DNA of 64,000 nucleotides. Source: Candidatus Moraniibacteriota bacterium. Its GTDB lineage: Bacteria > Patescibacteriota > Minisyncoccia > Moranbacterales > UBA2206. Made by a program: the position numbers and the translations under genes. Positions 6,731-61,364 of the stretch are shown here, piece by piece. The DNA is taken from positions 7,994-71,993 of the forward strand of contig CAVZKT010000002.1 of the NCBI GenBank assembly GCA_963775955.1, read 5' to 3'. Position 1 is the first letter of the stretch; the number at the start of each line of letters is the position of its first letter. Under the pieces are notes generated by a model. The model made no database searches. It saw only the letters and a program-made list of their open reading frames with translations, and was not told the origin of the DNA.

Positions 6731-7228
6731 CTATATCAAAAACTTCCTTTTATTTTCCGAAAGACTGGTGAATTCGTCAGCGGCTTCAATGAGTTTGGAG
6801 CTGGTGGATTCTTTAAAGGCCATCACTTCCACAATACAACCGGTGGTGTTTTGAATATATTCCACGACTGGAATATAATCTCCGTCGCCGGAAACTAAAA
6901 CTAAAGCATCCAGGCTCTTGGACATTTTGATGGCGTCCACCGCGATGCCGACATCCCAGTCGCCTTTTTTGGCTCCGCCGGGAAAGATTTGCAGATCTTT
7001 GGTTTTTACTTCAAAGCCTTGTTTTCCGAGCGCTTCAAAAAATTTTTCTTCCTGGCCTTCAACAGTTTTGATTCCATAAGCAATCGCGCGGATCAGTTTT
7101 CTTCCCGAAACCGCGTCCAAAAGGACGTTTTTGAAATTAACTTTTTTTCCGTGAAGCACGCGGGCGCTGTAATAGAGATTTTGAATGTCCACTAATACAC
7201 CGACTCTTTGTTCTTTGAACTTTGCCAT
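6731..7228 (-). CDS. NYN-domain (LabA-like) protein
   Basis: MAKFKEQRVGVLVDIQNLYYSAR...LVSGDGDYIPVVEYIQ. The internal ATG at 7226-7228 is the more likely start than the track's 7279. Confidence 0.75.
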   Translation of the reverse strand: MAKFKEQRVGVLVDIQNLYYSARVLHGKKVNFKNVLLDAVSGRKLIRAIAYGIKTVEGQEEKFFEALGKQGFEVKTKDLQIFPGGAKKGDWDVGIAVDAIKMSKSLDALVLVSGDGDYIPVVEYIQNTTGCIVEVMAFKESTSSKLIEAADEFTSLSENKRKFLI

Positions 7229-7439
7229 TTTTGTCTTTGAGCGGAGCGAAAAGCTACAAAAATGAGCATCCCGCACCAATTCATTTATTAAATTATCTAT
7301 TAGTTAAAATTAAGCCGCAGGCGAATCCGTGGAACCATCCAGATATTGGCAGAAAACCAGTTTCGGAATTGGTGCTGGGATAGCCATCGCTTTTTATTTA
7401 GTTAAAACTTCCAAGGTTAAGCCTCGGAAGTTGAAGTGA

Positions 7440-7706
7440 TTATTTCAGATCTAATTGTTTCAGCAGTTTTTTGTAAGCTTTTTCGTCTTTGCCTTCCAGA
7501 TAGCTCATCAGTTTTTTTCTTTTGGAAACCATCTTGAGCAGACCTCTGCGGGAATGAAAATCTTTCGGATTTTTTTTAAGATGAGAAGTGAGCTTTTTGA
7601 TCTGTTCGGTGAAAAGGGCGATCTGGTATTCCGGCGAACCGGAGTCCTTCTCATGCCTTTTTACTTCCTTGGTCACTTTATCTTTTTGTTTGCCTGTGAG
7701 GGCCAT
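7440..7706 (-). CDS. rpsO: 30S ribosomal protein S15
   Basis: 88 aa, ...GSPEYQIALFTEQIKKLTSHLKKNPKDFHSRRGLLKMVSKRKKLMSYL. Sits upstream of pnp as in many bacteria. Confidence 0.9.
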   Translation of the reverse strand: MALTGKQKDKVTKEVKRHEKDSGSPEYQIALFTEQIKKLTSHLKKNPKDFHSRRGLLKMVSKRKKLMSYLEGKDEKAYKKLLKQLDLK

Positions 7707-7913
7707 ATGTTTTGGGGCTGAACATTCGTTCCGATCCGCCGCGGCGGACGAAAACCAATGTCCGCTAAATTAAAATAAATTATTTTTCCAATGCGTCTTT
7801 ATGTCATCGTAAATTTTTTAGGGTCTGATAAGCTTCCATAATTTCAATGCTGACGTTGCACTGTCTTTCAGGGCTTCCTGCTATATTAGTTCTTGAATAT
7901 CTATGTCCTTTCC

Positions 7914-8084
7914 CTAAAATCCGCGGTGAATTTCTTGCCTATTAATCACATCTATATCTTCAGTGCTAAATATTTTTAGCGCAGCAATTCCACTATATCT
8001 TCGGCATATGCCTTTAATTAGAACATTCTTTTTCCGCTTCTTAGTTGCTTTTTCTGGAGTTAATTCCGAATTTTCTTCAAACAT
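7914..8084 (-). CDS. small hypothetical ORF (56 aa, possibly truncated by an indel)
   Basis: Below the ORF-track cutoff. MFEENSELTPEKATKKRKKNVLIKGICRRYSGIAALKIFSTEDIDVINRQEIHRGF. Weak. Confidence 0.2.
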   Translation of the reverse strand: MFEENSELTPEKATKKRKKNVLIKGICRRYSGIAALKIFSTEDIDVINRQEIHRGF

Positions 8085-8142
8085 AAATTTAGCTTAGTGC
8101 ATTATAACCATATCAAAGGAAGAGGATTTTGTCCAGGATGGT

Positions 8143-8320
8143 TTTACTTTTTCTTTCCGCAAGAAAAAGTAACAAAAAGAACTCTCAGCAGGACAAAATT
8201 TCCAAACAAATCCTACGCTCGTTCGCTAAAATTTTTGGTTGCCCCGAGACGGACCTAAAAATTTCTTGATGCTCTCTCACTTGAGTTTGTGGTTGGAAAT
8301 TTTGTATGCTGAAGAATTTT
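8143..8320 (+). repeat. ~190-bp long-hairpin repeat, copy 1 of 3
   Basis: CTTTTTCTTTCCGCAAGAAAAAGTAACAAAAAGAACTCTCAGCAGGACAAAATTTCCAAACAAAT... is repeated almost verbatim at 43452 and (more diverged) 46851. The left and right halves are imperfect reverse complements. Confidence 0.8.
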
Positions 8321-8351
8321 TTAAAATATGCTAGAATGGATAAGTTATTTA

Positions 8352-8451
8352 CCCCGTTAGAGTTTTAATATGAATTATGCGGGGATAAAGCAGTAATCTT
8401 TTTTGGTTTTTCAATATTAAATAAATTTAATTTTGTAAAACTCTAACGGGG
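8352..8451 (+). repeat. CCCCGTTAGA-type inverted-repeat element (16-bp perfect arms)
   Basis: CCCCGTTAGAGTTTTA at 8352-8367 and TAAAACTCTAACGGGG at 8436-8451 flank an AT-rich 68-bp core. The right arm abuts the pcrA GTG start. Confidence 0.8.
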
Positions 8452-10715
8452 TGGAAAACGACATTCTAAAAAATCTGAATCCGGCGCAGAGGGAAGCCGT
8501 GGAAACCACTGAAGGGGCGGTTTTGATCATTGCCGGAGCCGGCTCGGGCAAGACCAGGGCGCTCACGCACCGCGTGGCCTATCTGATCAAAGAAAAAAAG
8601 ATTCCGCCGCGAAATATTCTGGCGGTGACTTTTACCAACAAAGCGGCGCAAGAAATGAAAGAACGAGTGCGGGTATTATTAGATGTTAATAACCAAAAAC
8701 TAAAAACTAAAAACTACGAACTTCCAATAATGGGCACTTTCCATTCTATCTGCGCGCGGATATTGCGCCACGAAATTGAAAAATTGGGCTATAAAAAAAC
8801 TTTCAATATTTTTGACGACCAGGACCAACTGGCGACGATGAAAAAGGCGATGAAGGAAAGTGAGATGGACATGGAGCAATTTAAACCGCAGGCGATGCTT
8901 AATGCGATTTCCAAAGCCAAGAATGAACTGATTGACGCGGCGACTACAGAGAATCCATCGGCAGTTATTATGAAGAAACGGTGTCCAAGGCCTATATTGC
9001 TTACCAAAAAAAACTCAAAGAGCAAAACGCGCTTGATTTTGACGATATTATCATGCTCACCGTCCAATTATTCCGGAAATTTCCGGAAATTTTGGAAAAA
9101 TACCAGAATTTTTTCCGCTATATCATGGTGGACGAATACCAAGACACTAATCGCGCGCAATATACCTTGATTAATATGCTAGCCAAAAGGAACGGCAACA
9201 TCTGCGTCGTGGGCGATGACTGGCAGGGTATATATTCCTGGCGCGGAGCGAACATCCAAAATATCCTGGATTTTGAAAAGGATTATCCTAGCGCCAAAGT
9301 CATAAAATTGGAGCAAAACTACCGTTCCACGCAGAACATTTTGGATGCGGCCTATGGCGTAATTTCCAAAAATATCAACCGCAAGGACAAAAAAATTTGG
9401 ACCCAGAGCGCCAGCGGACAACTCATAACCTCCTATGAAGCCGGAGATGAAAGAGATGAGGCGGAATTTGTGGTGAAGGAAGTTTTGCAAGAGAGAGAAA
9501 AAGAAAAACACAAATTTTCCGATTTTGTAGTTTTGTATCGTACCAACGCGCAATCCCGCATCATGGAAGAAGTGATGCTTCAAAATTCAATTCCCTATAG
9601 GATAATCGGCGGAATAAAATTTTATTTGCGCAAGGAAATAAAAGACATTATCGCCTATTTGCGCCTCATTCAAAATTTCAATGACGCGGTATCGCTGGAG
9701 AGAATAATAAATGAACCCAAAAGAGGCATTGGAGAAGTTACGCTTAAGCATTGGGTTGAAACTTTCAAAAGAAAATAATATTGATCTGATTAATTGCGGA
9801 TTTACAAATCCGAAATCCGAAATCCTAAATCCGAAATAAATTCAAATCCGCCAACCGGCGGACAAAATTCAAAAATCTCGACTGGAAAATATTTTTAAGT
9901 TTTGTGATTTTATCAAAAGGATGAATGAGGCGATCCGCAAATTGCCGCTGACTGATTTTATGGAAAAAGTCTTTGCAGAGTCCGGGTATGAAAAATTTCT
10001 TTTGGACGGCACGGAAGAGGGAGAAATGCGGCGGGAGAATATCCGGGAGCTGCTGACAGTGGCCAAAAAATACACAGAATATAAAGGCGAAGAAGCCCTG
10101 CGGATGTTTTTGGAAGAAGTCGCGCTGGCATCTGACACGGACAATGTGAACCAAAACCTGGATGCCGTGCACCTTATGACGCTTCACAGCGCCAAGGGAT
10201 TGGAATTTAAAGTCGTTTTTATTGCCGGCCTGGAAGAAGGAATCCTGCCTCATTCCCGCAGTATGCTGGATCAGGGCGAAATGGAAGAGGAAAGGCGGCT
10301 GATGTATGTCGGCATCACGCGCGCCAAAGAAAAAGTTTATCTGTTGTTTACCAGCCAGCGCAATATTTTTGGTTCCACGCAAGTTAATCCGCCATCAAGA
10401 TTTCTGGATGATATACCGCCGCACCTTGTGCGGAATTTCCAATTTCCAATTTCCAATTTCCAAACAAATTCCAAATTACAAAATCAAATCCAAAAATTTC
10501 CCCTCACCCGTCCCGATATACATCAGGACACCCTCTCCCGAAAGGAGAGGGAAATACGGAATAAAAACACTTTTAAAGATGGTGATAGGGTAAAACACAA
10601 AATTTTCGGCGAGGGCCTAATAGTTTCCTCGCAAGGCGATACACTCACAATCGCTTTTTCCAAATCCGGGCTAAAGAAGCTTTCCGCTTCCATCGCGCCG
10701 CTTAAGAAGATTTAG
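8451..10715 (+). CDS. pcrA: ATP-dependent DNA helicase PcrA/UvrD (interrupted: frame changes near 8941 and 9765, in-frame TAA at 9837)
   Basis: Fragments 8451-9170, 8981-9778 and 9921-10715. Motifs AGAGSGKT, TFHSICARIL, VDEYQDTN, VGDDWQGIYSWRGA, LEQNYRST, TLHSAKGLEF, MYVGITRAKE. Confidence 0.9.
9806..9837 (+). repeat. tandem heptamer repeat (AAATCCG)x4.5 inside pcrA
   Basis: AAATCCGAAATCCGAAATCCTAAATCCGAAAT, followed by hairpin TCCGCCAACCGGCGGA. Confidence 0.8.
10432..10498 (+). repeat. tandem heptamer repeat (TTCCAAT)n and derivatives inside pcrA C-terminus
   Basis: GGAATTTCCAATTTCCAATTTCCAATTTCCAAACAAATTCCAAATTACAAAATCAAATCC, translated as RNFQFPISNFQTNSKLQNQIQ. Confidence 0.8.
10499..10552 (+). 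repeat. double-hairpin GC-rich element, copy in pcrA
   Basis: TCCCCTCACCCGTCCCGATATACATCAGGACACCCTCTCCCGAAAGGAGAGGG, same architecture as 25343-25390 and (inverted) 12796-12845. Confidence 0.75.
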
Positions 10716-11940: not shown

Positions 11941-12071
11941 GGGCGCTGTCAGGAGGGCATATTTTGCTGATCTTAAGCCAAAATAGCCTTTTATAAATTT
12001 TTTGATCTTCGACCATTTTCAATTGTGGTAACTTGGTGTATGATGAAAATGTAAATGTCGCACAATAAATT

Positions 12072-12150
12072 CTCGTAACTCGACTCTCATAACTCGCAAC
12101 AAATCGGACTGGAAATAAAATAGTGTCAAGTTGCGGGTTGCGAGAGTCGA
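12072..12150 (+). repeat. heptad-word hairpin (CGTAACT family) in the xerC-like 5' leader
   Basis: CTCGTAACTCGACTCTCATAACTCGCAAC ... GTTGCGGGTTGCGAGAGTCGA. The arms pair with G:U at the transition differences. Confidence 0.75.
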
Positions 12151-12157
12151 TAAATTT

Positions 12158-13110
12158 ATGATAATTAGAGATCTCAAAAACCAATTTCTGGAATACCTGG
12201 AGATTGAAAAAGGCAAGGCCGGGAAAACTATTGAGAACTATGGCCACTATCTGAATCGGTTTATTGGATGGTCTAAAGTTTTCGATCCCCAGGATATTAC
12301 CGAAGAAACCGTCAGGGGGTTTCGGGTTTATCTTAATCGCTACGAGGACAAAAAAGGGCGGAATCTCAAAAAAATAACCCAAAATTACTATATTATCGCT
12401 CTGCGCAGTTTTTTGAAATATTTGGCCAAAAAGGATATTAAAACGCTGCAAGCGGAGAAAGTGGAAGTGGGAAAAGTGGTCCGTAAAGAAGTGGAATTCC
12501 TGGAAGCGGAGGAAGTGGAGCGAATTTTGGGCGCGGCCGACGGGAATAGTTCCAAGGTTTTGCGGGACCGGGCGATGCTGGAGCTGCTTTTCTCATCCGG
12601 TCTTCGTGTTTCCGAACTCACCAACATTGATCGCGACAAATTGGATCTCAAAAACCAGGAATTTACGGTGCGGGGCAAGGGAGACAAAATAAGGCTGGTT
12701 TTTGTTTCGGACAGCGCCAAAAGAGCGCTGGAAAAATATCTCGATAAGCGGACCGATATTGATCCGGCCTTATTTATTAGAATTCAAGCCAAATTTCCTT
12801 CTCCCTTTGAGGGAAGAAGGTCGGCCGCAGGCCGGATGAGGGTCAGTTAGATCTGCGGCTCACCCCCCGCAGTGTCCAAAGAATGGTCAAATATTACGCG
12901 GCCAAGGCGGGCATCATAAAAGACGTCCATCCGCACACTTTGCGCCATTCTTTCGCCACAGATTTATTGATAAACGGCGCCGATATCCGCAGTGTCCAGG
13001 CCATGCTTGGCCATTCTTCCATTACGACGACGCAAATTTATACCCACATTACCAACCAGCAGCTCAAAGAAGTCCACAAAGCGTTCCACGCGAGAAGAAG
13101 AAAAAAATAA
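12158..13110 (+). CDS. tyrosine site-specific recombinase XerC/XerD-like (frame broken at inserted element about 12796-12850)
   Basis: N-terminal SAM-like domain ([18 protein letters not shown]), [20 protein letters not shown], then after the break [14 protein letters not shown]...[14 protein letters not shown]. Confidence 0.85.
12796..12845 (-). repeat. double-hairpin GC-rich element, inverted copy in the xerC-like gene
   Basis: CCTTCTCCCTTTGAGGGAAGAAGGTCGGCCGCAGGCCGGATGAGGGTC, the reverse-orientation equivalent of the tilS copy. Confidence 0.75.
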
Positions 13111-13133
13111 TCCGCCGCGGCGGATTATTTTTA
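13109..13133 (+). terminator. hairpin AATCCGCCGCGGCGGATT + T-run (xerC-like terminator)
   Basis: Perfect palindrome overlapping the stop codon, followed by ATTTTTAT. Confidence 0.6.
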
Positions 13134-16126: not shown

Positions 16127-16269
16127 TGTAAACAAGAGGTTTACAATTTTTTATTTGTTGATAATGCTTTAAATAAGCCATAAAATGGCAATAAAATCAT
16201 AATAATTATTAAATTTGTAAGTTTGACTTTACACTTTTGTAAAATCAAGTTACAATGGCTCGTTGGATT

Positions 16270-22294: not shown

Positions 22295-22540
22295 GGAGTT
22301 TACGAACTGCGAATTTAGTGAAATTACGAATCCGCCGCGGCGGACGAATATACGAATGGTTCTTATTTACATAAATAATTATAGCATCTCAGAACCGGTT
22401 TGTCGAGAGGCTTACGATAAAAACTTAGACTTGGAGGTCTAAGTAAGTATATTTTAGAATTTTGGCTTATTCAAAGTCTTTCCTAAAACCCCGTTCTAGG
22501 AAGTGGCTTGTTTAAGCCCTTTGGTTGTTCTAGCTATGTC

Positions 22541-28997: not shown

Positions 28998-29067
28998 TAA
29001 AACGGGCGTGCTCAGTTTCCGCCAAAGGCGGACCCGCCTATGGCGGGGGTTAGAAAGTATAATGCAC

Positions 29068-32318: not shown

Positions 32319-33852
32319 ATGATCAAAAAAATTCCAACTCAAGTCATTGAAGTTTTACAAAAACTGGAAGAATCAGGCTTCGAGGCTTTTATCGTGGGCG
32401 GATGCGTGCGGGATTTGCTCACATTGTGGTGAGCCTGTGAACCAAAAGACTGGGATGTAGCGACTAATGCCAAGCCGGAAGAAGTGCAAAAAATATTCCC
32501 GGACAGTTTTTATGAAAATGAATTTGGAACGGTCGGAGTGAAAGTAAAGCCGTTTATTAAAAATGGAAATCCGAATCGTGAGCATGACGTGATAGAAGTA
32601 ACCACCTATCGCATTGAATCGAAATATTCCGACAAGCGCCGGCCGGATAAAGTTGAATTTGCAAAAACATTAGAGGAAGATTTATCAAGAAGGGATTTTA
32701 CCATCAACGCGATCGCATTAAAACTCGTAACTCATAACGCACAACTCGACACCCGAAGAGGAAAAAATAGCTACGAGCTACGAGCTATGGGTTACGAGAT
32801 CATTGATCCATATGATGGTCAGAAAGATATTAAGAAAAAAATAATCCGCGCAGTGGGTGACCCGCATGAAAGATTTGATGAAGATGCTTGCGGATGATGC
32901 GAGCGGTGCGGTTTCACGCGGAGCTGGGATATAAAATTGAAAAAAATACTTTTGAAGCCATTAAAAAAATATAGCCGGGGATTTAAAACACATTGCTCTT
33001 GAAAGAATAAAAGACGAACTGGCCAAAATTATATTATCCGACAATCCATGCTGAAGGCATTGATATGCTGCATAAAACTAAATCTTCTGGAATATATTAT
33101 TCCGGAATTGGAAAAGGGCGTGGGCGTGAAACAAAACCGCCATCATATCTATACGATATACAAACACAGCATTTTATCTTTAAAACATTGTCCTTCGCAA
33201 AAAATTGGAAGTGCGCTTGGCTGCGCTTCTGCATGACATTGCTAAGCCGCAAACCAAAAGAGGCGAAGGCGAATATGCGACTTTCTATAACCACGATCAT
33301 GTGGGTGCGCGGGTGGCGGCCAAAATTCTTGAGCGTCTGCGTTTTTCACGTGAAACAATTGAAAAGGTGAAACTTCTCGTGGATAATCATATGTTTTATT
33401 ACAATCCGGAAGAAGTGGGAGCCAGTTCCGTCAGAAAATTAATTCAAAAAGTCGGCTTGGAAAATATGAAAGATTTGATTGATGTGCGCATTGCCGATCG
33501 TTTGGGTTCGGGCGTGCCGAAGGCCAAGCCGTATAAATTGCGCCACTTGGAATATATGATTGAAAAAGTTTCCCACGATGCCATTTCCGTAAAGATGCTA
33601 AAAATCAACGGCAATGATCTGATGAAAGAATTAAATTTAAAACCCGGTCCCAAAATCGGCGCGATTCTGGATGTTTTGCTCTCGGAAGTTATTGAAGATG
33701 CTTCCAAAAATAATCGCGAGCATCTTTTAACGCGCGCTAAAGAATTGGATAAGGAGGATTTGAAAAAACTCCGCCAGATGGCGAAGGTAAAGATTGAAGA
33801 GAAAAAAGAAGAGGAAGACAAGGAAATTAAGAGAAAACATTGGGTGAAGTAG
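32319..33852 (+). CDS. cca: CCA-adding enzyme / poly(A) polymerase family with HD domain (5-6 frame changes)
   Basis: Pieces: MIKKIPTQVIEVLQKLEESGFEAFIVGGCVRDLL / PKDWDVATNAKPEEVQKIF...RDFTINAIAL...IIDPYDGQKDIKKKIIRAVGDPHERFDEDA / LRMMRAVRF.. / ...LAALLHDIAKP...YNHDHVGA. Confidence 0.85.
32724..32798 (+). repeat. 75-nt heptad-word hairpin inserted in frame in cca
   Basis: CTCGTAACTCATAACGCACAACTCGAC...AGCTACGAGCTACGAGCTATGGGTTACGAG encodes VTHNAQLDTRRGKNSYELRAMGY between the conserved RDFTINA and IIDP motifs. Confidence 0.8.
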
Positions 33853-33943
33853 GACCATTAGCTCAGTTGATTACCCGCCTCGGCTCGTGGAAGACACTTT
33901 GCGAGGCAGGGAGCACTGCATTTTCACCCCGCACCAAATTTAT

Positions 33944-34129
33944 GGATGCGTAGCTCAACCGGTTAGAGCGCTGCATTTTCATCCCGTTAGATATATGGAC
34001 GATTAGCTCAGTTGGTTAGAGCGTTGCATTCACATTGCAAAAGTCACTGGTTCGAGTCCAGTATCGTCCACAGAAAATCTAACGGGACAAGCATTGCAGG
34101 GGTCACAAGTTCAAGTCTTGTGCCATCCA
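33944..34129 (+). other. middle interrupted tRNA-like gene (same UUC anticodon arm) containing tRNA-Val(CAC)
   Basis: 5' part 33944-33981, 3' part 34094-34129. Bounding repeat CCCGTTAGAT (33983-33992) / ATCTAACGGG (34077-34086). Acceptor pairs 5/7. Confidence 0.5.
33997..34070 (+). tRNA. tRNA-Val(CAC)
   Basis: GGACGAT-TA-GCTC-AGTTGGTTA-GAGC-G-TTGCA-TTCACAT-TGCAA-AAGTC-ACTGG-TTCGAGT-CCAGT-ATCGTCC-A. Confidence 0.9.
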
Positions 34130-34230
34130 CATAAAATTGGTGCGGGGCAGGTTGCAGGGGTCAGTGGTCCGAGTCCGCTAGTGACCACAAATACTAAAAA
34201 CCAAATACAAAAAACTAAAAACTAACCAAA

Positions 34231-35010: not shown

Positions 35011-35146
35011 CTTTATTTTTCGGAGCGTGGTATAGTGGTATTACCTGCAGCACCAGAGCGAGGCGCTCGGTGCGAGGCAGGCGCCCGTTAAATACCGGAG
35101 CATAGTATACCGGTAGTACGCGCCCCCTGCCCCGTTAAATATTTTT

Positions 35147-35217
35147 CGGGATATAGTATAGTGGTAGTACGCGCGATTCGGGTTCGTGAAGTCCCAGTTC
35201 GATTCCGGGTATCCCGA
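35147..35217 (+). tRNA. tRNA-Pro(CGG)
   Basis: CGGGATA-TA-GTAT-AGTGGTA-GTAC-G-CGCGA-TTCGGGT-TCGTG-AAGT-CCCAG-TTCGATT-CCGGG-TATCCCG-A (one A:C in the T-stem). Confidence 0.8.
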
Positions 35218-35449
35218 CATCGAAAAATTTAACGGGGTGAAGGTGGGTGTAGACCGGGTTCGATTCCCGGCATCCCGACCGAAAATTTAACAGGGTGAAG
35301 GTTCGTGAAAACCGGGCTCGCCCCGCGCCATTTCTCGGGATAATTGTGGTTTTATTAGGCATTAAGGCGAAGCCGCTTCGCTTTAGTTCTGATGAATATC
35401 ACAGATTATGTTTGGAAATGGTGCGGGGTGAAATTCCCGGCATCCCGAC

Positions 35450-35743
35450 ATGAAAATAATTATAAAAAAAATTAAAGAAAATCCGACAAGTCTGCTGCGG
35501 ATGGCCGGCTATATTTTTCAGCGCAACGAGGGCGAAGAAATGAGTTTTATCCGTCCTTTGGCGCGCGCGGGCTTTCCGCGTTTCCATATGTATGCTAGTG
35601 TGGCTGGAACTGATTTAGCAATAAACATCCATCTGGATCAGAAAAAAGAAACCTACGGAAATTCTAATCGCCATCATGGAGAATATGGAGATGAAGGCGC
35701 ATTAAAGGCGGAGATTGAGAGAATAAAAAGTATTTTGCAATAA
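35450..35743 (+). CDS. hypothetical protein
   Basis: 97-aa ORF between tRNA clusters. Confidence 0.5.
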   Translation: MKIIIKKIKENPTSLLRMAGYIFQRNEGEEMSFIRPLARAGFPRFHMYASVAGTDLAINIHLDQKKETYGNSNRHHGEYGDEGALKAEIERIKSILQ

Positions 35744-37450: not shown

Positions 37451-37500
37451 GCGCGCTTAGCTCAGTTGGCTAGAGTCCGCCACGGCGGATTTACACCGAG
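37451..37500 (+). pseudogene. partial copy of tRNA-Val(TAC) (acceptor, D-arm, modified anticodon arm)
   Basis: GCGCGCTTAGCTCAGTTGGCTAGAG is identical to 37745-37769, followed by TCCGCCACGGCGGA-TTTACAC-CGAG. Confidence 0.7.
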
Positions 37501-37511
37501 AGGGTAAAATT

Positions 37512-37754
37512 ATGTTTTTTGTATACATTATCGAAAATAATGACGGAAAGCTGTATATTGGTCAAACCTATAATTTAGAAAAAAGAATTCTAGATCATAA
37601 CGAATTAGGAATAGGATATACTTCTAAATTTAGACCATGGAAATTAATATATTCAGAAAGTTTTTATTCCAGGAAAGATGCTATGAAAAGAGAAAAATAT
37701 TTAAAAACCGGAGCTGGCAGGGACTGGATTAAAAATAATATCAGGCGCGCTTAG
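37512..37754 (+). CDS. GIY-YIG nuclease-domain protein (80 aa)
   Basis: MFFVYIIENNDGKLYIGQTYNLEKRILDHN...KREKYLK. The stop codon TAG lies inside the 5' end of the downstream tRNA-Val(TAC). Confidence 0.8.
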   Translation: MFFVYIIENNDGKLYIGQTYNLEKRILDHNELGIGYTSKFRPWKLIYSESFYSRKDAMKREKYLKTGAGRDWIKNNIRRA

Positions 37755-37821: not shown

Positions 37822-37933
37822 TTTCGGAAAAGTGCGGATGGAGTCCGCCACGGCGGATTTACAACAGAGAGTTTGGGGGCTGAAAGTTCGCCGTGGCGAA
37901 TTCGAGTCCTATAGGATCCACCCTTAAAAATAA

Positions 37934-38181
37934 CCTGGATAGCTCAGTTCCGCCAAGGGCGGACAGGGTTCGAGCACACGACCCCGCACTAAAATTTTGC
38001 CGAGTTAGCTCAGTGGTAGAGCACACGACTGAAAATCGTGGTGTCCCCAGTTCGATCCTGGGACTCGGCACATAAATGGCAAAATTTAGTACGGGGCAAG
38101 CTGAAAATTTTACCCCGCACCAATCCGCCGCGGATTTGGTGTCGGGGCCTTGCGTGCCCAGTTCGACTCTGGGATCTGGCA
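37934..38181 (+). other. interrupted tRNA-Phe-like gene enclosing intact tRNA-Phe(GAA)
   Basis: CCTGGATAGCTCAGTT[CCGCCAAGGGCGG]...GAGCACACGAC | CCCGCACTAAAATTTT | tRNA-Phe | AAAATTTAGTACGGGG CAAG CTGAAAA [TTTTACCCCGCACCAATCCGCCGCGGATTTGGTGTCGGGG] CCTTGCGTG-CCCAG-TTCGACT-CTGGG-ATCTGGC-A. Confidence 0.5.
37999..38070 (+). tRNA. tRNA-Phe(GAA)
   Basis: GCCGAGT-TA-GCTC-AGTGGTA-GAGC-A-CACGA-CTGAAAA-TCGTG-GTGTC-CCCAG-TTCGATC-CTGGG-ACTCGGC-A. Confidence 0.9.
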
Positions 38182-38231
38182 CAAAATATTGCTTTGCATG
38201 AAGCGGGTCTGCCCGCCAAGGCGAAGCGCAG

Positions 38232-39562: not shown

Positions 39563-39841
39563 ATTTAAAACAAACACTTTCTCTCATAAACCCAGTTCAA
39601 ACCCCAGAAGTATCCGCCTCGGGCGGAACTACGGGGTAGGCTGTATGAACCCCGGTAGCAAATCCGCGGCGGATTGCTACAGGGTAAACTTCCCAGCTCA
39701 AAAATAGTCCAAAACACCCTTTTTCAAGCCGAAAATCCTACCCGGGGATTTTTTGGTTTTTATGGCTTAAATCAGCCTAAAACAAAAAGCGGGAGAAATC
39801 TGTATGGCTTAAATAAGCCAAAAAGTCGAATCGGCCTTTTA

Positions 39842-39918
39842 CCCCGTTAGAAGTTATATATTTTGCTTATTAAAGCCTTAAATGGCAATTTTTCGCTTGA
39901 AAAAGACTTCTAACGGGG
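39842..39918 (+). repeat. CCCCGTTAGA-type inverted-repeat element
   Basis: CCCCGTTAGAAGT (39842-39854) / ACTTCTAACGGGG (39906-39918). Confidence 0.8.
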
Positions 39919-39947
39919 TTGACAGCTGGATGAGGATCTGCTATACT
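39919..39947 (+). promoter_or_regulatory. sigma70-type promoter TTGACA-N17-TATACT (extended -10 TGC) abutting the repeat arm
   Basis: GGGGTTGACAGCTGGATGAGGATCTGCTATACTGG, 70 nt upstream of the 40016 gene. Confidence 0.6.
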
Positions 39948-40015
39948 GGTTGGTCAGCCTGGAAAGGCTATTTTATTTGGAGTCTGGGCCTGACATTAAC
40001 AATTAAAAGCAATAC

Positions 40016-40585
40016 ATGCGTATCATTAGTAAGTTGATGGTCGCGCTGGCGCTTTTGGCGGTAATTATGCCTCAAGTAGCCCTGGCGGCCGAAAACGAGG
40101 ACACTAATGAAACACAAACAAAATTTAAAATACAAGAGAATAATCAGGCTGTTGATGGCCTTGTCTATGACAACATACTGATTCAAGCGCCTTACAATTA
40201 TCCCGGATACGAGCCGGTTAAGACTCCCGATGAGCTTAAGCGGGAAGCGATGGCCGAGAAGTATAAAAATTTAATTGCTTCTGCCAACTTTCCACAAGGA
40301 AAATTTGTGCTTAACGCTTCAGCCTATACGGCGGCGGCGGATGAGTGCGGAAAAAGCAACGGCATTACGGCCAGCGGCGTCAAAGTTATGGAAAACAGAA
40401 CTTTGGCCTGCCCGCCCCAATATCCTTTTGGAACCAAAATCCAAATTGATGGCATGGGAACCTATGTTTGCGAAGACCGCGGGGGAGCGATCAAGGGCAA
40501 TCATGTGGACATCTATATGGAAACCAAGTCCCAAGCTTTCGCTTTCGGACGAAGAAATCTGGTGGCGGAAATAGTCCTGAACTAA
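40016..40585 (+). CDS. secreted 3D-domain protein (MltA/RlpA-like fold)
   Basis: Signal peptide. ASAYTAAADECGKSNGITASG...YPFGTKIQIDGMGTYVCEDRGGAIKGNHVDIYM. Confidence 0.75.
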   Translation: MRIISKLMVALALLAVIMPQVALAAENEDTNETQTKFKIQENNQAVDGLVYDNILIQAPYNYPGYEPVKTPDELKREAMAEKYKNLIASANFPQGKFVLNASAYTAAADECGKSNGITASGVKVMENRTLACPPQYPFGTKIQIDGMGTYVCEDRGGAIKGNHVDIYMETKSQAFAFGRRNLVAEIVLN

Positions 40586-40768
40586 AAATTCAAAATAAAA
40601 TATGCAAAAACATCCCGAGCAATTGGGATGTTTTTGTTTACTCCCGCATCAACTTTTTATTTTATTAAATTTCGATTATTAACCAATTAATTTCTATGTA
40701 AAAAGTTGGTGCGGGGTTTGACCTAAGGAGTTGTTTTTGGTAAACTAAGCCTTGTAATATAGTATTTT

Positions 40769-47072: not shown

Positions 47073-47597
47073 TCAATTTATCTTTTTCGGTTCCTGTAGC
47101 ATGGCGATTTTGATGGCCTGCTCTTCTTCTTCGGTGAGCGGATATTTTTCTGATTTTCCGGCAGCGACAGCTTTGGCATAAATCCGGGTGCCTTCGCGGG
47201 TGTATAAGGAAGAAATGATAATCCCGCTATTTTTTCCATTGAGAAGCGCAATGGCGAAGCTTTGATCTCCGCCGACTTCCTTAAAAGGATTAAAACGTAC
47301 CAGTCCGGTTTTATGCAATCCGCGGAATGATAAGCTGTTTATTTGATTGGAAATTCCATAAAGCTCCTGAATTTCTTTGTCCAAAGTTTTAAGACTCCCG
47401 GCCTGATTCAGGAGGATTTCTTCCAAGTTTTTAATCTTATTTCCGGAAAAAAGCAAATTGTTCTTCTTTTTAATTCTTGAGATGCCGACCTGCAGGAAAA
47501 TATTCCAAAGCAGAATAACGCCGGAAACAGCGGCTAAGGCGATAATAATATTTTCTGAATTGTTTTTGATTAGTTCCACCCCATTAGAGTTTTCCAA
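47073..47597 (-). CDS. DUF4446-like membrane-anchored protein
   Basis: N-terminal TM. GLVRFNPFKEVGGDQSFAIALLNGKNSGIIISSLYTREGTRIYAKAV. Confidence 0.6.
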   Translation of the reverse strand: MENSNGVELIKNNSENIIIALAAVSGVILLWNIFLQVGISRIKKKNNLLFSGNKIKNLEEILLNQAGSLKTLDKEIQELYGISNQINSLSFRGLHKTGLVRFNPFKEVGGDQSFAIALLNGKNSGIIISSLYTREGTRIYAKAVAAGKSEKYPLTEEEEQAIKIAMLQEPKKIN

Positions 47598-47642
47598 AAT
47601 TATGAAAAATAATATTGGAATCGTAAAAATAATTAGACGCAG

Positions 47643-47676
47643 CCCCGTTTTAAATTAGATAAAAGCTCTAACGGGG
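47643..47676. repeat. short CCCCGTT...TCTAACGGGG hairpin (truncated member of the family)
   Basis: CCCCGTTTTAAATTAGATAAAAGCTCTAACGGGG, 45 nt upstream of the minus-strand gene start at 47597. Confidence 0.65.
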
Positions 47677-55704: not shown

Positions 55705-55891
55705 TCTTTATAGATTTTTTGGTTAATTTATTCACTTTTCAAAGGGCTTTCGTCTCATCCATGCCCATCCCTTCATTACATTCTGTAACAGGGAATACTA
55801 GCATAAATACAGCTGGAAGTCAATGGCTTGGCTGTTTTTGGCTTATACAAGCCTCCTCAAAAGCGGGAGAAATATGTGAACATCCACTTGA

Positions 55892-56000
55892 CCCCGTTAG
55901 AAGTTCACAGACGTCTTTTTTCACATAGATACGCGCGAGCGAAGCGGCTTTACCTTTAAGTATTCTTTTTGGTGGATACTTTCCAAAAATTCTAACGGGG
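55892..56000 (+). repeat. CCCCGTTAGA-type inverted-repeat element
   Basis: CCCCGTTAGAA (55892-55902) / TTCTAACGGGG (55990-56000). Confidence 0.8.
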
Positions 56001-56029
56001 TTGACTTTCTGATGGAGGCTTGCTAAGAT
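56001..56029 (+). promoter_or_regulatory. sigma70-type promoter TTGACT-N17-TAAGAT (extended -10 TGC) abutting the repeat arm, upstream of nusA
   Basis: GGGGTTGACTTTCTGATGGAGGCTTGCTAAGATAT, paralogous to 39915-39949. Confidence 0.55.
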
Positions 56030-61184: not shown

Positions 61185-61364
61185 AATAAAAAACAGCCCC
61201 GAAGGGCTATTTCCGACCACGTTCCTATGCTGGATGTCCCAGCCACACCACCATCCGGTGATAGTTCAGAATACAGGTCTTTGTGCTTATAATACTAGCA
61301 TAACTAAAAAATATTTCAAGTTAAATTGTCCACAGCCTAAAATATGGCTTAAATAAGGAATTTT

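Follow-up and report, generated by a model that had tools for sequence, protein, structure and literature searches.

The subject of this analysis is a 64-kb stretch of genomic DNA from contig CAVZKT010000002.1 (hereafter the window) and, within it, a short inverted repeat lying at the promoter of a gene for a 3D-domain protein. The segment at 39842-39918 is very probably a miniature inverted-repeat transposable element (MITE), a non-autonomous DNA transposon, which was inserted at the already existing promoter of this gene. Apart from an autonomous partner, all properties of a MITE were found: the element is short and non-coding, carries inverted repeats and a duplication of fixed length, varies in presence between relatives and has many dispersed copies. 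The family has terminal inverted repeats of about 11-14 bp starting (C/T)CCCGTTAGAA, a length of 60-120 bp, a variable AT-rich interior and a T-N-N-A target-site duplication; arms bounding its elements are written as CCCCGTTAGAA. The insertion is real and an ordinary kind of event; the family is a new one in an under-studied phylum.

A perfect 14-bp inverted repeat, ACCCCGTTAGAAGT (39841-39854) and ACTTCTAACGGGGT (39906-39919), encloses a 51-nt AT-rich core. The first-pass annotation, made from the letters of this DNA, had described an inverted repeat joined to a TTGACA promoter, and this was borne out, with arms of 14 bp and a core of 51 nt. Folding of the element as single-stranded DNA gives -20 kcal/mol (z = -6.8). 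The window contains CCCCGTTARA 9 times, where 0.38 occurrences are expected, a count reached by 0 of 100 shuffles, and 16 inverted repeats of the type CCCG...CGGG (at least 9 bp) were found against 1.7 in shuffles. The -35 box TTGACA (39919-39924) adjoins the right arm and is followed, after 17 nt, by TG-TATACT, ending at 39947. With 11 of 12 matches in a promoter scan, this is the best promoter-like site of the region. The repeat region of the 3D locus matched no Rfam family, and a known RNA family was rejected there since only chance-level hits to long non-coding RNAs were returned at E ≤ 1.

Contigs of close relatives were retrieved via homologues of the 3D-domain protein, a neighbouring 97-aa protein and NusA. 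All retrieved loci, about 150 in number, are labelled L001 etc.; L013 is identical in sequence to the window. The window carries genes for NusA, L19, an RluD-type pseudouridine synthase, a CCA-adding enzyme and 15 tRNAs. Judged by sequence comparison, its genome belongs to the Candidate Phyla Radiation (CPR)/Patescibacteria and is Moranbacteria-like, because its closest relatives in genome collections are metagenome-assembled genomes of Candidatus Moranbacteria/Moraniibacteriota with conserved gene order.

At the 3D promoter, the element is present in the window and in L016/17 and missing in L014/15, L020, L018/19, L021 and L001. All relatives, with the element or without, have in common the promoter TTGACA-N17-TGCTATACT and, upstream of it, a flank containing GGCTTA..TAAGCC palindromes. 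The empty site reads ...ggtct/TTGACA (slashes mark insertion points), the filled site ...TTTA[CCCC...GGGG]TTGACA in the window and ...TCGA[CTCC...GGGG]TTGACA in L016. At the nusA promoter, the window and L144 contain the element, bordered by a perfect TTGA on each side; in L143 and L145 this site is empty. The cleanest pair was obtained at the start codon of the DUF4446 gene, which in L016 is empty and reads ATGGAACTC (longer stretch: ggccggacATGGAACTC). In the window it reads ggccggatA-TGGA-[98 bp]-TGGA-ACTA, the difference being exactly the element plus one TGGA; ATGGAA became A-TGGA-[element]-TGGA-A, an exact 4-bp target-site duplication. At the tRNA-Cys promoter, a copy of a second arm family (F2, below) is missing in the close relative L014 (3D protein 90% identical), which reads ...tttttgTTTGACC. 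Insertion polymorphism was found at these four orthologous sites (the 3D, nusA and tRNA-Cys promoters and the DUF4446 start codon). The sites vary independently, because in the L021 genome the 3D site is empty and the nusA site filled, and in the L016-type genome the opposite holds. The comparison with sister genomes proposed in the first-pass annotation, for presence or absence and target-site duplications, accordingly returned polymorphism at orthologous sites and a 4-bp duplication. Its idea of a MITE-like element is supported by presence or absence at three orthologous sites, by the duplication and by copies in at least 120 contigs elsewhere.

The element terminates in GGGG, and the TTGA after it is the duplicated target. 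The -35 is target DNA and not cargo of the element, because TTGA is the duplicated site. A promoter-bearing module with an outward-facing -35, as first annotated, is not supported: TTGACA-N17-TGCTATACT and the left flank including GGCTTAAATAAGCC stand without the repeat in all the relatives listed above as lacking it. The left flank and promoter had also been described as repeated upstream of nusA. The similarity was confirmed (the two upstream regions align with 72% column identity, and AAAGCGGGAGAAAT is found without mismatch at 39786 and 55860), but the flank is not part of the element. It is mostly native promoter-upstream architecture, with the exception of a 21-26-nt segment in filled nusA alleles.

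The following mechanism is proposed. A DDE transposase supplied in trans would bind both arms, excise or copy the DNA that they bound and place it into a target opened by a staggered cut of 4 bp. The 3D copy would have entered the TTGA of the -35 hexamer TTGACA. The promoter survives because the right-hand TTGA together with CA restores the -35, and upstream DNA including the two GGCTTA..TAAGCC palindromes is displaced by about 81 bp. In start-codon copies, the last G of the element and the duplicated TGNA form a new GTG start. Insertions strike functional punctuation exactly, namely -35 boxes, start codons and stop/ribosome-binding-site junctions, and would be tolerated there because the duplicated target rebuilds the signal (TTGA to -35; G + TG to GTG).

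For the distribution of the family, metagenomes were scanned with the pattern CCCGTTAGA-N59-89-TCTAACGGG. Elements were found in at least 120 contigs, so that copies are not confined to the window; confinement to it had been named in the first-pass annotation, which proposed such a search, as an outcome against its own reading. Flanking 4-mers were identical in 67 of the 122 copies with usable flanks versus 0 of 122 in a shifted control, and 16 more matched at three of four positions. The duplicated 4-mer has the consensus T-N-N-A (T first in 66/67, A fourth in 62/67), common targets being TGAA, TAAA, TTTA, TTCA, TTGA and TGGA. Target contexts were often ATGAA or ATGGA (apparent start codons), GTAAA/GGAG (stop/ribosome-binding-site junctions) and TTGACA. 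Copies on the TTGA of TTGACA-N17-TAnnnT promoters were seen in the unrelated contigs L064 (two), L076, L141 and L052. Copies measure 59-122 bp, with arms of 10-18 bp spaced 40-95 nt apart and no open reading frame (ORF) noted inside. Conservation is limited to the first 11-12 nt of each end, with terminal core CCCGTTAGAA. The idea that the interiors are decayed tRNAs was rejected, a T-loop-like motif being present in 2 of 143, one of them real tRNA cargo.

Locus L016 holds five copies in 12 kb with a third arm variant, CCCCCACACCAA, and T-N-N-A flanks. Arms appear to have diversified lineage by lineage, with the CCCC...GGGG ends unchanged. Elements of the F1 type were also present in 11 stretches of IMG/VR viral contigs (L146-L156), UViG_3300038429_000794 having three copies. 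These contigs may be CPR phages, and a possible vehicle of spread, or misclassified CPR DNA.

Within the window, five copies of the family of the 3D element (F1) and at least six copies of F2 were counted. The F2 arms, of the type CCCCGCACCAA, had not been listed in the first-pass annotation. Local inverted pairs of CCCCGTTARA lie at 8351-8452, 35130-35237, 39841-39919 and 55891-56001, and a CCCG-type pair at 33982-34087. The copies annotated earlier at 8352-8451, upstream of nusA and around two tRNAs were thus recovered, at 8351-8452, at 55891-56001 and at 33982-34087 and 35130-35237, respectively. A further copy, given as 47643-47676 and shortened, exists but is of full length (98 bp, 47579-47676), its left arm CCCCATTAGAG having one mismatch. 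The copy in the pcrA leader has the same geometry as the DUF4446 copy. In the pcrA/uvrD-like helicase gene itself (8451-10715, plus strand), the reading frame changes twice, near 8980-9170 and around 9780-9920. Either the gene is a pseudogene or the assembly contains indels here; an alternative genetic code was rejected, the breaks being plain frameshifts. Coordinates are collected in Table 1.

Table 1. Coordinates of the elements, promoters, genes and tRNA loci discussed (window positions unless a locus is named).
Feature	Position	Strand	Details
MITE copy at 3D promoter, family F1	39842..39918	.	77 bp CCCC to GGGG; arms CCCCGTTAGAAGT / ACTTCTAACGGGG
Left target-site duplication copy	39838..39841	.	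TTTA in window, TCGA in L016; T-N-N-A family-wide
Right target-site duplication copy	39919-39922		TTGA
Native sigma-70-type promoter of 3D-domain gene	39919..39947	+	TTGACA, 17 nt, TG-n-TATACT
Native upstream flank	39764..39819	.	Palindromes GGCTTAAATCAGCC and GGCTTAAATAAGCC, AAAGCGGGAGAAAT in between; outside element
3D-domain (YuiC-like) gene	40016..40585	+	Pfam PF06725; served by 39919-39947 promoter
F1 copy upstream of nusA	55892..56000	.	109 bp; perfect TTGA/TTGA duplication, 55888-55891 and 56001-56004
Native nusA promoter	56001-56029		TTGACT-17-TAAGAT
F1 copy in pcrA leader	8352..8451	.	Last G plus flank = GTG start codon, 8451-8453
F1 copy in DUF4446 start codon (gene on minus strand)	47579..47676	.	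TGGA/TGGA duplication; new GTG start
F2 copy at tRNA-Cys promoter	40643..40715	.	Arms CCCGCATCAAC.../...GTTGGTGCGGG; directly upstream of TTGACC, -35 of tRNA-Cys promoter
F2 copy	7270..7378	.	At start of minus-strand ORF 6731-7279
F2-type arm pairs	7270-7378, 33927-34147, 35321-35428, 37982-38096, 38113-38150, 40643-40715		
tRNA-Val nest, three layers	33852..34192	+	Intact tRNA-Val(CAC) 33997-34071 between arms 33982-33994 / 34075-34087
tRNA-Pro nest, three layers	35020..35451	+	tRNA-Pro(CGG) 35147-35218 between arms 35130-35144 / 35223-35237
tRNA-Phe nest	37933..38184	+	tRNA-Phe 37999-38071 between arms 37982-37993 / 38085-38096
Further nests	L021 8840-9035, 9810-9998; L022 9696-9998; L122 1740-1985, 9330-9620; L123 1330-1560; L002 11760-12055		
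T-loop F2 elements with GGCGAAGCCGCTTCGC	Window 35321-35428; L022 9869-9976; L002 11920-12024		
Third-variant copies, L016	1566-1645, 3571-3653, 6472-6594, 9299-9362, 10133-10259		
Palindrome spans	39764-39777, 39806-39819, 55840-55853, 22505-22518		
Palindrome variants	39764, 55840, 22505, 16166, 15018, 38942, 61346		GCTTTAAATAAGCC at 16166
Short GC hairpins, examples	37467-37482, 37843-37858, 37888-37901, 37957-37971, 38124-38138, 29011-29040, 13100-13125		

Several observations weigh against a MITE insertion. No autonomous element combining these arms with a transposase gene was found in the window or in the about 150 retrieved loci. Of 141 interiors compared, 93 have no detectable relative, which is unusual for a MITE family. 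The left copy of the duplication has diverged from the right at the 3D site (TTTA) and at the pcrA site (TTTA vs TGGA). About a fifth of all copies, including every one in a tRNA context, are flanked asymmetrically (CNNG/.../TGAA), without duplication. Finally, filled nusA alleles hold an extra 21-26 nt (AGCGGGAGAAATATGTGAACA...) beside the element that is missing in empty alleles. This segment (window 55862-55887, compared with L143 and L145), for which simple transposition does not account, nearly repeats a native motif that precedes the 3D-domain gene (39786-39805). Distant arm pairs with T-N-N-A duplications were also considered as autonomous partners and rejected, as they enclose rpmE/prfA (from translated ORFs), a dehydrogenase, enolase or short ORFs.

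Bacterial MITEs include Correia/NEMIS of Neisseria, RUP of Streptococcus pneumoniae, ERIC/IRU and Nezha. The window family is like these in being short and non-coding, with inverted repeats, a target duplication and dispersed, polymorphic intergenic sites, often beside promoters and in leaders, and in being able to form hairpins when transcribed. In Correia and RUP, TA is duplicated and copies are similar over their whole length, whereas the window family duplicates 4 bp (T-N-N-A) and is similar over about 11 nt per end. Correia elements carry promoter elements of their own; here the -35 comes from the target and the host is a CPR bacterium. Supply of the -35 and/or -10 by the element, as in Correia, was not observed, both boxes being present at empty sites.

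Transposons of the piggyBac group make a TTAA-type 4-bp duplication and have CCC...GGG termini, and their published target variants TAAA and TCAA fit T-N-N-A (PMC10813416). Their prokaryotic relatives are the IS1380 elements (PMC10813416), members of which capture adjacent DNA through surrogate ends (PMC9330008). The window family shares CCC...GGG ends and a TTAA-like 4-bp duplication with piggyBac/IS1380, and such capture could account for its unrelated interiors. Unlike in piggyBac/IS1380, no transposase was found for the family, and the link consists of the end and duplication signatures only. The family may be said to resemble piggyBac/IS1380, as a lead and not as a claim of membership.

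A second group of arm-bounded structures was found in the tRNA genes. Three window loci are nested like Russian dolls: a tRNA-like shell is interrupted in one of its loops by an intact, arm-flanked tRNA of matching identity, and in the Val and Pro loci a further outer shell surrounds this. In the Val nest, the inner unit interrupts the anticodon loop of a Val-like shell. This shell is itself flanked by arms (33927-33944 / 34130-34147) and enclosed in the second shell; the orthologous L021 shell is interrupted in the D-loop instead. In the window Pro nest, both shells have mismatched acceptor strands, and an F2 element (35321-35428) lies in the T-loop of the outer shell. The Phe shell has kept its loop CTGAAAA and contains a second, small F2 element (38113-38150). 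In the close relative L014, the Leu-Val-Phe-Gly array is clean and its genes closely packed, and L021 has the same Phe nest as the window. Because the L014 array is clean, the nests are, on this comparison, taken as lineage-specific insertions. Nests were also seen in contigs without relation to the window, in L122 for Val(GAC) and Ser(UGA) and in L123 for Ser(UGA). In every readable nest, shell and inner tRNA have anticodon or amino-acid identity in common, and nesting reaches a depth of three layers.

Shells look intact in some relatives and decayed in the window. In L021/L022, the outer tRNA-Pro and tRNA-Val(CAC) shells have perfect acceptor, T and anticodon stems. ARAGORN called a 72-nt tRNA-Pro(CGG) only when precisely the element and TGAA were taken out; this restores a loop CCCGGGT whose position 33 is C. 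The T-loop reads TTCGATT in L021 vs CACG[...]TGAAATT in L022, the F2 element being present in L022 only. A single substitution separates the complete Pro nests of these two genomes, against a divergence of about 10% in neighbouring genes. A target-site duplication was sought for the copies in tRNA context and rejected, the flanks being CNNG/.../TGAA or TTCA/.../CAAG. Split or trans-spliced tRNA halves were rejected as well, as no partners were found in the window for the orphan acceptor strands CGCTCCG and CGGGATG.

In our reading of these sequences, the arm-flanked tRNA units would be replacement cassettes that entered the cognate gene and left decaying shells. A bolder version is possible although rather doubtful: a selfish arm-tRNA-arm cassette would enter the loop of the same tRNA gene by homing or recombination, possibly aided by a GIY-YIG enzyme, and would be tolerated via its replacement copy; several rounds of invasion would produce the nested, decaying shells. 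In a more radical variant, likewise doubtful, the shells would remain in use, being spliced by RNase P/Z-type cleavage of the arm helix and ligation. If true, such a cassette would be a previously undescribed kind of selfish element, and the radical variant a protein-dependent tRNA splicing pathway in bacteria. The nested loci suggest an unusual mode of tRNA gene turnover and are of main interest here.

Archaea such as Nanoarchaeum and Thermoproteales have split and multi-intron tRNAs, and free-standing homing endonucleases such as T4 SegB occur in tRNA clusters. Shared with these systems are tRNA halves on complementary GC-rich arms, inserts in non-canonical loop positions and GIY-YIG genes in the arrays. 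Unlike archaeal split tRNAs, the nests showed no bulge-helix-bulge on inspection, their shells are decaying and each insert is a complete replacement tRNA with the same anticodon.

GIY-YIG genes were observed within tRNA arrays, beside partial tRNA duplications. In the window, an 80-aa GIY-YIG gene (37512-37754, plus strand) lies between a chimeric 5' partial tRNA-Val(TAC) (37452-37511) and a complete, CCA-encoding tRNA-Val(TAC) (37830-37915); the ancestral Val(TAC) gene (L014 type) persists downstream as a remnant riddled with hairpins. Similar genes occur in tRNA arrays of L014 (2039-2281) and L003 (about 12065-12335). The T-loop F2 element, inserted after TCG and before TGAAATT, has an internal palindrome, GGCGAAGCCGCTTCGC, conserved in three distant genomes. 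The F1 copies at nusA contain a related motif, GCGAAGCGGCTT (window 55928-55945 and the equivalent element of L144). In the Pro shell, a longer hairpin inserted after the D-stem and before position 26 has compensatory changes (window 35044-35079 vs L001 9375-9409). Very short GC hairpins, CCGCC-N3-4-GGCGG, recur in tRNA remnants, D-loops and terminator stems.

The tRNA loci also bear on the alternative that the arms act at the RNA level, as intron-like intervening sequences or processing stems whose insert is removed or cleaved, e.g. by RNase P/Z or RNase III, leaving interrupted tRNAs and mRNA leaders functional. The inserts occupy exposed tRNA loops (D-loop, T-loop, anticodon loop after position 35), and arm sequences differ between nests yet remain complementary. 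Removal of element plus TGAA restores a valid tRNA from the well-preserved shells of L021/L022, the exon-exon junction predicted for an L021-type genome being ...CACGACCCG/GGTTCATG.... Group I introns at position 35/36 of Patescibacteria tRNAs are known; they are self-splicing ribozymes, validated in vitro, that follow U35 (PMC13011429). As in those introns (PMC13011429), the window inserts are found in the same phylum, enter the anticodon loop after position 35 (CTTG/, CCCG/) and escape standard tRNA annotation. In contrast to them, the inserts are hairpins of 80-115 nt, some with a whole tRNA, lie after G35 and occur in D- and T-loops as well. No group I intron family reached the Rfam gathering threshold in the window, where the inserts measure merely 80-115 nt. 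No bulge-helix-bulge motif (two 3-nt bulges, 4-bp helix) was seen by inspection either, the arms forming an uninterrupted helix of 10-18 bp from the junction onward. The flagged copy lies upstream of its promoter and would be transcribed by read-through only, and free copies bear DNA-level duplications. Moreover, the shell is dispensable, as shell and inner tRNA always share the anticodon, and the restored L021 loop has C at the normally invariant U33. In the window, where shells have mismatched acceptor strands, in-silico excision restored no Pro or Phe shell, and the Val shells gave non-Val anticodons only. An RNA-level role of the arms is therefore considered improbable.

Still less credible is the view that the hairpin is conserved for a regulatory function, as a cruciform, protein-binding inverted repeat or transcriptional insulator selected to control the 3D-domain gene, nusA and tRNA-Cys. 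Three window copies do adjoin a -35 box and two a start codon, the stem is strong, and at the 3D and nusA promoters the element parts a conserved palindrome, GGCTTA-N2-TAAGCC, from the -35. However, it is missing at the same promoters in relatives with proteins 79-90% identical, and arm spacing and interior sequence are unconstrained. The position bias at promoters and start codons is explained by the T-N-N-A target (TTGA, TGAA, TGGA) and by the compactness of the genome, in which insertions survive only in the short intergenic stretches. The conserved regulatory cruciform offered as an option in the first-pass annotation is likewise not supported, the element being dispensable in close relatives and its interior not conserved between copies.

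The 14-bp palindrome itself stands 13-18 nt upstream of the -35 at the 3D and nusA promoters of empty-site relatives and, from its sequence and position, may be an operator or UP-like site. It had been annotated as a recurring quasi-palindrome; GGCTTAAATAAGCC is exact at 39806 only, and variants occur at the positions given in Table 1.

That the arms are sites of a site-specific recombinase (integron attC-like, GTTAGA resembling GTTRRRY, or serine/tyrosine) with interiors as cassettes can be practically discarded: variable interiors, whole tRNA genes included, do lie between conserved arms, and a large serine recombinase adjoins the 3D-domain/tRNA-Cys locus in L014, but the half-site order is reversed relative to attC (GTTAGA...TCTAAC, not RYYYAAC...GTTRRRY), the 4-bp T-N-N-A duplication is the signature of a transposase and not of a recombinase, and copies are dispersed singly rather than in arrays, with no integrase near them among the few ORFs covered by protein-family scans. 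The L014 recombinase (530 aa, 6749-8341, minus strand) overlaps a tRNA-Cys/tRNA-Leu(TAA) pair just downstream of the 3D-domain gene, which suggests an integrated element at that locus.

Insertion of a MITE thus remains the preferred reading of the 3D repeat. The family represents an active-looking DNA transposon family with a piggyBac/IS1380-like signature in the very small, gene-dense genomes of Patescibacteria, and no earlier description of it was found in the literature. A literature search returned no paper on MITEs in CPR bacteria, and searches for MITE or tRNA insertions in CPR, Moranbacteria and Patescibacteria gave group I intron papers only. The copies can be used as strain-level markers. 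They may also separate promoters functionally from operator-like palindromes lying upstream, and may affect expression.

Outside these loci, a match to the Rfam family DUF3800-IX RNA (RF02968) was detected at 61211-61279 (minus strand) with 48.8 bits vs a gathering score of 36.8.

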